64,000 nucleotides of DNA from Eledone cirrhosa (Eukaryota): NCBI GenBank assembly GCA_964016885.1, contig OZ024740.1, positions 78,058,001-78,122,000 on the forward strand. The letters run 5' to 3'. Position 1 is the stretch's first letter. Each line of letters opens with the position of its first letter. The position numbers were made by a program, and so were the translations under genes. The notes under the pieces were generated by a model that searched no databases, was not told the origin of the DNA, and worked only from the letters and a program-made list of their open reading frames with translations. Shown here one piece after another: positions 14,828-62,579 of the stretch.

Positions 14828-15305
14828 TTCTGCCAGGAGTTGCAACCGGTAGATAGTATCAGGAATGGAAAGACCAAAATATTCTTTCCTTGGTCCGATT
14901 TGACGAGGTCCGCCCCACTCGGCAGGAGAATTTGGTCTGGGATCTTGTAGATCGATCACAGCGAACTAGTCAAGTATTTGGATCAGTTTAATTGACTAAC
15001 CCTGCCTTGTATCGATATGAGAAACAAATATCAATCATTACAGGTTGAGAAACTTAAATCCGGCACAAACTGGTCTAGCAACTTCCATTGTCCGGCACCT
15101 TTTGAATCTGCTATGTTTTGAGTTTTAGACTTTAAATTACACGAAACAATAAAACCATTCTTAGAAGGATTTTTTCTTGTTTTAAGTTCTGTTTTAGTAT
15201 TGATAATATATATATATATATACGTTATTCCGGGTTGAATCGGAGGTAACCACAGTAAGTGAGGTACTCAATACATAGCAGAGTATAAAAGTTTTAATAT
15301 AGATG

Positions 15306-15356
15306 AGATTCTACAGGACTAGAACTGTTTCATTCTTTAGAAATCATCAGGAATCT
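15306..15356 (-). ncRNA. Type I hammerhead ribozyme motif, family H2
   Basis: Minus strand agattc-CTGATGA-tttctaaagaat-GAAACAG-ttctagtc-CTGTA-gaatct; stem I 6 bp perfect, stem III ACAG/CTGT, GUA triplet. Confidence 0.8.
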
Positions 15357-15878
15357 GGGTATCAAAATATAAATATGGTATTTATAGGTCTCTTCAGGTG
15401 GTAGGAGAGGGTAGGGAGTGGGATGGGTAGAGGTCATTGGTTGATAGAAAAGGGAATTCATTAAAAGCTAATTCTTTGAAGCTATCATTTATATTTAGAG
15501 TAACAAAGGCAGAAAGAATTCTATAAACAAATTCAGAATGGGGTGCCACTCCTTATTTTTAAGTTTCTCTTAAGATAACAATGCCTATATTTCAGGTGTC
15601 TATAAGATCATTGGGGTCAGTCATGGTTGATGGATTTAAAGAAAAGGGAAATTCTTTAAAAGCTAATTCTTTAAGGTTCTACTTAGTGACAAAGGCCTAG
15701 AGAATTCTAGAGACCAGTTCAAAATATTGAGTGCATATCATACCATTATCTTCAAATTTCTCTTAAACTATATTCCAAAAGTCAACAGACACATTCACAA
15801 ACACACACACACACACACTCGCACCCCCCCCATATATATATATATATATATAATACATATACACACACGCATATATAT

Positions 15879-15909
<31 letters not shown>

Positions 15910-16385
15910 GACACGTGCACACATATATACATATATATATATATATACACATATATATATATACACACGCACACATACACATACATATATATATATATAT
16001 TTATATACATACACACATATATATACACATACACATATATATACACATACACATATATATATATACACACACACACATATACATATATATATATATACAC
16101 ACACATATATACATATATATATATATATACACATATATATATATGTATGTATGTAAGTACACGTACATACATATATGTATACAGACGTACAGTAGTATGT
16201 ATATATATATACATGCACACATATATATATATATGCACGTATCGGTTTACGAACATTTATTATAATGCTCGGTTTGTTTGTTTGTAAACTGAACTCACTC
16301 GATATGCAAATTAGGCTGCTCAGCCGTTAATATGCATAAGGAAAGTATATACTTTCAGACGTTCAACCATCTGGCATGAAGGTAT

Positions 16386-16428
16386 ACGATGCTGACGATA
16401 GCTAATAAGCTTGAAACTAGTACAGCGT
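16386..16428 (+). ncRNA. Type I hammerhead ribozyme motif, family H3
   Basis: acgatg-CTGACGA-tagctaataagctt-GAAAC-ta-GTA-cagcgt. Confidence 0.7.
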
Positions 16429-16743
16429 TCCTGTGTCAGCGTTGAACAAAAGGTGACGTGGTTGCCTAAACACTGTACGGCGTAATTCAAACTGTTTGTT
16501 TGTTTACAAACAAACGTGCACATATATATGTGTGCATGTATATACTACTGTACGTCTGTATACATATATGTATGTATAATACATACATACTTAGATTTAA
16601 GTAAGTGCCGTACTAAGAGTGAGAAATGAAATTTCGTTTCATTCTATTCTCTCTCTCTCTCTCTCTCTCTCTCTACATACAAACACATATACACATACAC
16701 ACACACATATATACACACATACACGTGGCACATATACACACAC

Positions 16744-24021: not shown

Positions 24022-24058
<37 letters not shown>

Positions 24059-24083
24059 CTGTGTGTGTGTATATATATATATA

Positions 24084-24108
24084 TATGTATACAGACGTAC
24101 AGTAGTAT

Positions 24109-24152
<44 letters not shown>

Positions 24153-24571
24153 CATGCACACATATATATATGTACGTATGGATTCACCGAACATTTATTA
24201 TAATGCTCGGTGTGTTTGTAAACAAACATCCCGAATTAAGCCGTACAGTGTCTAGCAACCATCGTTGCTCATTTGTTCAACACTGACAAAGGAACGCTGT
24301 AGTAGTTTCAAGCTTATTAGCTATCGTCAGCAACGTATACCTTCTTGCCAGATGATTGAACGTCTGAAAGTATATACTTTCCTTATGTATATTAACGGCT
24401 GAGCAGCCTAATTTGCATATCGAGTGAGTTAATCGGCCGGGGTACCGAAAACGATAAACGGAAAAAATGAAACGAAATTTCATTTCTCACTCTTAGTACG
24501 GCTGTTACTTAAATATAAGTATGTATACAGACGTACAGTAGTATGTATGTATATATATATATATACATACA

Positions 24572-24640
<69 letters not shown>

Positions 24641-25265
24641 GTATGGATTCACCGAACATTTATTATAATGCTCGGTGTGTTTGTAAACAAACATCCCGAA
24701 TTAAGCCGTAGTGTCTAGCAACCATCGTTGCTCATTTGTTCAACACTGACACAGGAACGCTATACTAGTTTCAAGTTTATTAGCTATCGTCAGCAACGTA
24801 CGGCTTAATTCGGGATGTTTGTTTACAAACACACCGAGCATTTTAATAAATGTTCGGTGAATCCATACGTACATATATATATGTGTGCGTGTATATATAT
24901 ATATATACATACTACTGTACGTCTGTATACATATATGTATGTACGTATACATACTTATATTTAAGTAACAGCCGTACTAAGAGTGAGAGATGAAATTTCG
25001 TTTCATTTTTTCCGTTTATCGTTTTCGGTACCCCGGCCGATTAACTCAGTCGATATGCAAATTAGGCTGCTCAGCCGTTAATATGCATAAGGAAAGTATA
25101 TACTTTCAGACGTTCAATCATCTGGCAGGAAGGTATACGTTGCTGACGATAGCTAATAAGCTTGAAACTAGTACAACGTTCCTTTGTCAGTGTTGAACAA
25201 ATGAGCAACGATGGTTGCTAGACACTGTACGGCTTAATTCGGGATGTTTCATTTTTTCCGTTTAT
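24084..25265. mobile_element. Hammerhead-bearing tandem/fold-back element (H3), retrozyme-like concatemer
   Basis: About 1.6 monomers on minus (24084-24799) then about 1.05 monomers on plus (24798-25249); hammerheads at 24294-24336(-), 24757-24799(-), 25137-25179(+). Confidence 0.8.
25137..25179 (+). ncRNA. Type I minimal hammerhead ribozyme, family H3 (best copy)
   Basis: acgttg-CTGACGA-t-agct-aata-agct-t-GAAAC-ta-GTA-caacgt; stem I 6 bp perfect, stem II agct/agct, palindromic stem III ACTAGT. Confidence 0.85.
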
Positions 25266-25297
25266 ATATATATATATATATATACACGTTTATTAAC

Positions 25298-61584: not shown

Positions 61585-61723
61585 AATTCAAACGAGATGT
61601 AATGTTCCATTGATATGTTTCCCGTCATATGTGTTATTCATTTCGGCCAGTAAGCATATATGCTCTCCCTTGTTTATTATATATATATATATAGTTATGT
61701 AATAAACAACATAAGGCAGTTAT

Positions 61724-61781
61724 TCCATTTACCAGTGGTTTCTTAAAAGCAAAAAATGTTGCTTTCAATCATCAGAATGAA
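61724..61781 (-). ncRNA. Type I hammerhead ribozyme, family H1 (intact); mirror copy 61878-61935(+) has C3U
   Basis: ttcatt-CTGATGA-ttgaaagcaa-catttt-ttgcttttaa-GAAAC-cact-GGTA-aatgga; 10-bp stem II, 6-bp stem I; in fold-back 61691-61968. Confidence 0.85.
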
Positions 61782-62579
61782 AAAATCCTGGTCTGTTTAT
61801 TGAATTTGGATTTTAAAAAAACGAAAAACAGTTTTTTGTTTTTTAAAATCAAAATTCAATAAACAGACCAGGATTTTTTCATTTTGATGATTGAAAGCAA
61901 AACCTTTTGCTTTTAAGAAACCACTGGTAAATGGAATAATTGCCTTATGTTGTTTATTACATAACTATTAAGCTCTGTTACCTACATAGAGCACTCTTTT
62001 TTCTTGGACTTTTCCGACTGAATTACTTCACATATATATATATGAGAGAGATTTTATGTGTATGCACGTGTGAATGTGTTTGTGCGTGCAAGTTTTTTTC
62101 CACTTGATCTTTTCAGTACTTTTTTTCAAGTCTGATGCTATCTTTTTTATTGATCTCTCTTTTTCGAACTGCTAAGTTATGGGATATAAACTAAGACAGG
62201 GAAACATACGCACCCGCGCATATATATATATACATACACACACAGACACACACACACGTACACCTACACACACACATAGAGTGACACATATATACACACA
62301 TTCTAGATTTCACTTTAACATTATTTATTTCACGCTAAGTTCCGAATCGCAATTTTTTCACTTCCGACGAACAAATCTACTCTCATAAAGTTCACGTTTA
62401 TTTGACACTAAATCCCCTTAATTAAGGTCTTTTAATTAAAGCCCACATCCTTTCACATTGGCTTTAATCTTAATGCCTATTATAATTAACTTTAGTAGTT
62501 CCCTCCGTCACCAACACCATCGACACCATCAATATATATGCTCATTCAGGGTTATATTAAACATACATACAACGGTAGA

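Follow-up and report, generated by a model that had tools for sequence, protein, structure and literature searches.

How did two opposed arms of one hammerhead-bearing repeat come to stand head-to-head in a TA microsatellite? The window, the whole stretch of 64,000 nucleotides from Eledone cirrhosa that was analysed, holds these arms at 24084–24800 (minus strand) and 24798–25265 (plus strand). The original prediction read them as rolling-circle copies of a circular RNA, inverted by a template switch. A tandem or inverted hammerhead repeat alone is no evidence of circular RNA, and the answer depends on where the copies of this family start and end.

Anatomy of the locus and of the repeat family

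The features of the locus are as follows.
24022–24087, no strand: (TA)n/(TG)n microsatellite of the left flank, probable insertion target (TA-rich 3′ flanks occur across the family)
24084–24800, minus: left arm of about 1.6 units (L001 mapping: unit positions 227–429, 18–429 and 1–45)
24108–24172, minus: internal TA-rich tract of the first unit
24294–24335, minus: hammerhead with GUA changed to CUA and a broken helix III pair, predicted to be impaired
24547–24637, minus: expanded internal TA tract
24757–24800, minus: hammerhead core with stem I shortened by the inversion, helix changes too
24798–24800, no strand: head-to-head (5′–5′) junction with the 3-nt overlap GTA
24798–25226, plus: single full 429-nt unit with a strong sense-strand fold
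24871–24911, plus: internal TA-rich tract of the plus unit
24950–24960, plus: short (S) 3′ terminus site, last letters TAT, putative reverse transcriptase (RT) start site 1
24961–25019, plus: 59-nt 'tail' from S to L, ending at the long (L) terminus TAT, putative RT start site 2
25112–25198, plus: intact type I hammerhead (motif scan and folding; stem I covariation)
25227–25249, plus: start of the next unit
25246–25265, plus: 20-nt terminal piece that ends at the standard long (L) site
25264–25284, no strand: (TA)n of the right flank, probable insertion target

Much of the predicted layout is borne out. Units of about 430–460 nt stand head-to-tail, the minus-strand hammerhead regions start 463 bp apart at 24294 and 24757, and the plus arm contains one 429-bp monomer, which begins at 24798 and again at 25227. 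The spacing is 463 and not 429 bp because the TA tract is expanded, less a 16-nt deletion. The variable TA-rich tract claimed for the monomer is present in every unit. Two details of the joins read differently. The strand does flip, at 24798–24800, but the palindrome cgtacg to which the flip had been assigned is a product of the join and no feature of the unit. Likewise, the GTTT microhomology (25246–25249) marks a real jump, an internal deletion of about 180 nt, but the segment reached is no random landing place and ends at the standard long 3′ end of the family. The outward-facing 3′ end of the left arm lies at or just short of the S site, and the tail of the plus unit holds a hairpin at about 24985–25010. 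All junctions of this locus are known from assembled contigs alone.

One hammerhead per unit had also been predicted, which holds, but only the plus-strand copy is intact and both minus copies are damaged. By motif scan and folding, the plus copy combines the core segments CUGACGA (25143–25149) and GAAA (25164–25167) with a long stem I, a 4-bp helix II and a 2-bp, palindromic helix III, and its predicted cut lies at 25173/25174. The CUGANGA and GAAA core, the NUH cut triplet and helices I–III with helix I open place it in type I. In the copy at 24330(−), GUA is changed to CUA, and helix III is thereby broken. In the copy at 24793(−), the inversion has left little of the 5′ strand of stem I, and further changes are present. 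An Rfam scan of the whole window gave zero matches at the gathering score. Of 231 units, 224 keep a standard pair at stem I positions 231–267 (UG 145, UA 27, AU 35, GU 17), counted as copies and not as independent events, and this covariation suggests that selection may act on the ribozyme. Only the dimeric form of the hammerhead is predicted to cleave, which would free monomers from multimers and spare the monomer circle. Its 2-bp palindromic helix III matches the dimeric hammerhead type described in PMC4209133; in co-folding, the dimer helix did not emerge as the minimum-energy form. The sense fold of the 429-nt unit has a z value of −8.8 as a linear molecule and is 72% paired as a circle, to which the TA tracts contribute partly.

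The anatomy is that of a non-LTR retrozyme, with tandem units in the 150–450-bp range and one type I hammerhead in each, the class to which the original prediction had assigned it. An LTR retrozyme was rejected, since the topology is type I instead of type III and an LTR pair is absent. A 34-nt core has 9,357 exact matches in the 3.0-Gb assembly against 0 for the reversed control, and these matches are therefore not due to chance. The exact core is carried by 40 of 86 sampled units, which suggests some 20,000 ribozyme-bearing units in the genome, an estimate that comes from a sample skewed to young copies. The family is also present in public runs coded as other organisms. Arrays of 5–8 units occur at three loci (L012, L061 and L137), and 30 of the 212 arms analysed below carry two or more hammerhead sites. 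GC content is 0.34 in the 2-kb bin of the repeat. The unit is non-coding, 429 nt without a conserved frame. The 68-codon frame of the plus unit was rejected as coding, as it reaches at least 60 codons in only 26 of 126 units and a common 1-nt indel shifts it. An autonomous Penelope-like element (PLE) was rejected too, because the unit contains no ORF with RT and GIY-YIG endonuclease.

Related sequences lie within and outside the window. A second copy of the family, from another subfamily, forms a two-arm head-to-head insertion at 16080–16643 within TA-rich repeats. Another head-to-head hammerhead repeat at 36392–37240 (cores at 36516, minus, and 36987, plus) is apparently non-coding and TA-flanked, with a longer 3′ extension on one arm, and is likely a second retrozyme family. 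At 15220–15720 (minus), upstream of a hammerhead at 15350, lies sequence resembling the decayed end of a coding region; this may be a truncated PLE. At 61700–62020, TA flanks a fold-back element whose hammerhead-like core lies at 61775 (minus), and 37191–58559 is a 21-kb array of low complexity, (ATATGTATAT)n, in which GC skew is extreme. Elsewhere in the genome, a distant sister retrozyme (L077:2385–2935) shares the plan of hammerhead, TA-like tract, tail hairpin and paired short and long arms, with a tail of about 67 nt. More distant relatives are present at L121 and L210.

Insertion ends and inversion junctions

We mapped the insertion ends of 139 loci (L001–L146 minus seven overlapping duplicates) on the natural unit from L012, a sample of about 140 of thousands of copies. 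Thirty loci were chosen by a 300-bp match and 29 by 67 bp of sequence that follows the ribozyme; most others were picked for an intact core. They contain 151 insertions, of which eight at locus edges were dropped. The remaining 143 comprise 73 head-to-head, 66 single-arm and four complex insertions; with the complex ones left out, 212 arms were counted. The 3′ ends of these arms fall into 86 short (unit positions 38–62), 93 long (94–116) and 33 other ends, and thus 179 of the 212 arms terminate at two fixed sites 59 nt apart. The circular concentration is 0.77 for 3′ ends and 0.08 for 5′ ends, which are diffuse; 39 of the 5′ ends at positions 1–20 adjoin the TA tract and can be placed only poorly. 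The ends are thus not permuted round a circle. The original prediction named shared fixed linear ends as its counter-case, and fixed 3′ ends are what the mapped copies share.

The two sites are strictly paired. Among the 73 two-arm insertions, 50 join a short to a long arm, one joins two long arms, none joins two short arms and 22 have one non-standard end, so that the short–long combination accounts for 50 of the 51 with two standard ends. The insertion in the window was counted among the 22, as the mapping missed its last 20-nt piece; by sequence it is short plus long. For short ends, the flank is TA-rich in 55 of 86 cases and for long ends in 73 of 93; the corresponding figures are seven of 33 for other 3′ ends and 19 of 66 for free 5′ ends. 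Target-site duplications, which exceed 4 bp in non-LTR retrozymes that have them, are not discernible inside (TA)n. Three of the 86 short arms terminate directly behind the long site, at unit position 111, where 0.2 would be expected, a pattern spotted post hoc.

The joins between opposite arms also carry information. The 5′ starts of the two arms lie at most 15 nt apart in only four of 49 head-to-head junctions, and the joining of two independent cDNAs therefore fits better than a fold. Self-priming at palindromes was proposed by Arkhipova et al. (2013); fold-back self-priming was rejected here, as 45 of the 49 junctions are not fold-backs. An overlap of at least 3 nt is found in 20 of 49 junctions against about 6% expected by chance, a count inflated by BLAST over-extension, and filler bases are found in 19 of 49. 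The template switch of the original prediction fits these data less well than two cDNAs, one per target strand, each primed at a different fixed site. The 227/318 inversion junction of the window recurs once, at an unrelated locus and in another subfamily (L270:1334–1807); given thousands of insertions, we estimate that this is compatible with chance.

Such a pattern is known from PLEs. Their insertions are 5′-truncated partial tandems, often with an inverted 5′-truncated copy, and have a tail of 30–40 bp, usually on one end, and a microsatellite bias (Craig et al. 2021, 10.1101/2021.04.23.441226). A PLE protein, once purified, cuts both target strands and extends them, and its RT starts at two internal RNA sites that bound the tail, with ribozyme cleavage dispensable (Frangieh et al. 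2024, PMC11167929). The repeat has the features of a PLE-mobilised element, namely two fixed 3′ termini, a one-sided tail, diffuse 5′ ends and inverted arms in 73 of 143 insertions. By analogy, we regard the fixed two-site ends and the pairing of short and long arms as the PLE 'tail' signature.

Our preferred reading, with a probability of roughly 0.8, is that this high-copy non-coding hammerhead repeat, a non-LTR retrozyme, has likely been copied into (TA)n by the RT and endonuclease of a PLE, which would prime once per cut target strand, at two internal positions that are fixed and 59 nt apart. The ends and TA flanks are directly visible, as are the PLE chimeras and the arms across the cut site described below; from them we infer the steps of cutting, priming and joining. 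The PLE protein would cut (TA)n on both strands. With TAT microhomology in each case, cDNA synthesis would begin at the short site from one 3′-OH and at the long site from the second. The template of both cDNAs would be a circular RNA or an uncut multimer, along which they would run back through the unit, often lapping it more than once, and the two cDNA ends would be joined through microhomology or filler DNA. Occasional jumps during copying could leave changes such as the GTTT deletion. The TAT match and the strict short–long pairing are unlike the starts of the published PLE, which lack target homology and show no strand difference in start site (PMC11167929).

Candidate helper and template

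GIY-YIG sequences are abundant in this genome, with 10,597 candidates. One family, PLE-A, has 36,151 candidates; 150 were scored and, besides the query's own copy, are 92–96% identical. PLE-A is about 4 kb long and has frames of up to 679 codons, an RT region, a CxxC linker and a GIY-YIG-like end. Against Pfam RVT_1, its RT region gives an E value of 0.0025, below the cut-off, and by its CxxC linker alone it may be called 'Neptune-like'. PLE-A terminates in (TA)n at two TAT sites with a spacing of 60 nt, compared with 59 nt in the repeat. Its 31 two-arm insertions clear of locus edges comprise 22 short–long, one short–short and one long–long pair and seven with another end, that is, short–long pairing in 22 of 24 with two standard ends. 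Its age is similar to that of the repeat (median identity 95.8%). Tandem plus inversion, which had been taken for a signature of circular RNA, are general features of PLEs; the autonomous PLE-A shows the same pattern.

Four chimeras join the repeat to PLE-A coding sequence with an overlap of 0–5 nt and no TA spacer (L204, L235, L202 and L144). In L204, the short arm of the repeat stands head-to-head with the long arm of PLE-A, and in L235, a long arm of the repeat is joined to a PLE-A arm with an interrupted end. In L202 and L144, the two sequences are joined within the same arm. The L202 chimera copies almost exactly one lap. L144 pairs two short ends, and so may reflect a later deletion between neighbours. 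A fifth chimera, L057, involves a different PLE family. The chimera rate of three in about 68 PLE-A loci does not differ significantly from 0 in 50 other GIY-YIG loci, a control set in which 30 had short flanks. The repeat showed no detectable homology to the terminal repeat of PLE-A (score matched by 30 of 500 shuffles), and its derivation from the latter was likewise not detected. A profile search of about 270 fetched loci, in which other PLE families are only sampled, found no coding relative of the repeat. The tail of another family, PLE-B, differs from that of the repeat; tail length is not universal among local families, and the match of 59 to 60 nt could be due to chance. PLE-A, an abundant family of RT–CxxC–GIY-YIG organization, is the likeliest helper, at about even odds.

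Other contacts and families were observed alongside. At L270, coding sequence from a relative of PLE-A follows the long end of the repeat almost immediately, and similar contacts of a repeat end with a PLE start occur at L120, L217 and L263. Several further TA-targeting PLE families are present among L147–L176 and L249–L268, one of which has a variable TA tract in its terminal region at the short end. A GAAAYGAAAT motif is common to the tail hairpin of the repeat (24985–24998 in the window), the sister family and the tail end of PLE-A (L208), a possible protein-binding element.

The arms themselves constrain the template. The ribozyme cut site is crossed by 174 of 212 arms, at least twice by 30 of them, and by 34 of the 45 arms from loci chosen without regard to the ribozyme. 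A cut linear monomer therefore cannot be the main template, and the template is likely to have been a circle or an uncut multimer. Arms exceed one unit by more than 20 nt in 104 of 212 cases. No pile-up of 5′ ends was found at the ribozyme cut, with seven of 212 in a 21-nt window where about ten were expected, and one of 45 in the same ribozyme-independent sample. Two junctions at the cut site (L256:4447–4460 and L028) are possible captures of cleaved RNA ends, in a number within chance.

Opposite arms of an insertion share 291 of 389 minor alleles, compared with 46,329 of 195,228 (24%) between loci. This suggests that opposite arms were copied from a shared molecule, although a quarter of the minor alleles are unshared, so one molecule would not always have served for both. 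Private divergence is 3.8% between tandem units, 3.5% between opposite arms and 3.9% between loci of one subfamily; unit identity was rejected as a test of rolling-circle copying, since these near-equal values are uninformative. The long arrays at L012 and L061 combine near-identical units with units 4–5% different, a mixture that points to local duplication after insertion.

The strongest alternative concerns the template within PLE mobilisation and is a sub-case of our preferred reading. Here only linear RNA would be copied, by read-through of genomic tandems that are perhaps the terminal repeat of an undiscovered autonomous PLE, with no circle and no part for the ribozyme in integration. 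We give it somewhat less than an even chance. The autonomous PLE-A of about 4 kb has the same inverted, short–long paired architecture, which is therefore not special to small RNAs, and in vitro, unprocessed RNA is the main substrate and ribozyme mutants are still inserted (PMC11167929). The lack of a pile-up of 5′ ends at the cut site and the seemingly locally duplicated arrays also agree with it. However, stem I covariation suggests that the ribozyme is under selection, related animal retrozymes make abundant circles (PMC7229834) and the L202 chimera is almost exactly one lap. Moreover, no shared 5′ transduced flank of a source locus stood out by eye among the matches listed for the 143 insertions.

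PLE mobilisation may also take a more specific form, which we consider rather unlikely. A circular hammerhead RNA with no detectable kinship to its helper would hijack a PLE RT dimer by mimicking only the spacing of the TAT sites (59 versus 60 nt), and both subunits would use the same circle, each with a site of its own for priming one strand. If this were true, the chemistry of retrozyme integration would be recorded in some 20,000 units, as would the origin of tail and inversion in PLEs, and every unit would leave a new expandable TA tract.

The spread of TA repeats had been proposed in the original prediction as well. The tract is indeed carried inside the unit, with a length of 31–49 nt in 125 of 132 units and a maximum of 107 nt, and some seeding of microsatellites by the repeat is plausible but modest. 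It would not be unique to the repeat; the terminal region of PLE-B also contains a TA tract. The flanking (TA)n, by contrast, is better read as the target, one shared with several unrelated PLE families.

Rolling-circle copying by a single RT, begun at an arbitrary point of a circular RNA, with inversion by template switch and spread of the carried TA repeats, is very improbable. It would explain the arms that cross the cut site or exceed one unit, and the TA tract inside the unit is sometimes expanded. However, the 3′ ends are fixed at two sites and the outer ends are both 3′, the short–long pairing needs two priming events, and a coding PLE shows the same architecture. This version is largely refuted by the end census. 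A DNA-level origin, by unequal crossing-over of a minisatellite with fold-back or by misassembly at TA tracts, deserves hardly any credence: some long arrays look locally duplicated and the junctions of this locus come from assembled contigs alone, yet thousands of dispersed copies have polar fixed ends, nearly all junctions are not fold-backs, chimeras include RT-coding sequence, and the family is found in other public runs.

Comparison with known systems

We compared the repeat, read as a PLE-mobilised retrozyme, with the systems that it resembles. Animal non-LTR retrozymes, as described by Cervera and de la Pena (2020; PMC7229834), share its non-coding tandem units of a few hundred nucleotides with one type I hammerhead each, its low GC content, its thousands of copies and the co-existing PLEs. 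The unit here is about 410–460 nt compared with 170–400 nt, and differs in its internal TA tract, its TA target and its mostly dispersed insertions of 1–2 units, half of which are head-to-head; the word 'inverted' is absent from the main text of that paper. The same paper already proposed that retrozymes depend on PLEs. With EN+ PLEs of the Neptune/Nematis type (Craig et al. 2021; Frangieh et al. 2024), the repeat shares 5′ truncation, partial tandems, an inverted 5′-truncated copy, a one-end tail, two internal start sites, a microsatellite target and a hammerhead upstream of the tail. Unlike them, it lacks an RT or endonuclease gene, and its tail is 59 nt compared with the published 30–40.

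The tail of the repeat is non-coding, whereas that of PLE-A lies within the first codons of the ORF. In the twin priming of L1 elements, head-to-head arms are primed from both target strands and joined by microhomology; the position of the second start varies, and overlap between the arms is not known. Unlike in L1, both starts of the repeat are fixed and its arms overlap extensively.

Vertebrate retrozymes have been described as non-autonomous PLE derivatives that PLEs mobilise (bioRxiv 10.64898/2026.07.22.740005). That work argues by phylogeny and from co-occurrence and terminal-repeat homology in Xenopus, whereas our argument comes from insertion ends and chimeras, with no helper homology detected. 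We found no description of this repeat family or of retrozyme end-mapping in the literature; Repbase or Dfam entries, subscription papers and supplements may hold one. Retrozyme integration and inverted one-tailed PLE insertions are both called open in the texts cited here. The family supplies a template of 430 nt and, in the same genome, there is a candidate enzyme whose open frames are long. Its ends follow a sharp rule, one short plus one long arm, and such clean evidence from ends and chimeras makes the integration mechanism of animal retrozymes testable. In summary, the repeat is of a known kind, a non-LTR retrozyme, and its mapped ends and chimeras are new, direct footprints of the probable PLE mobilisation.
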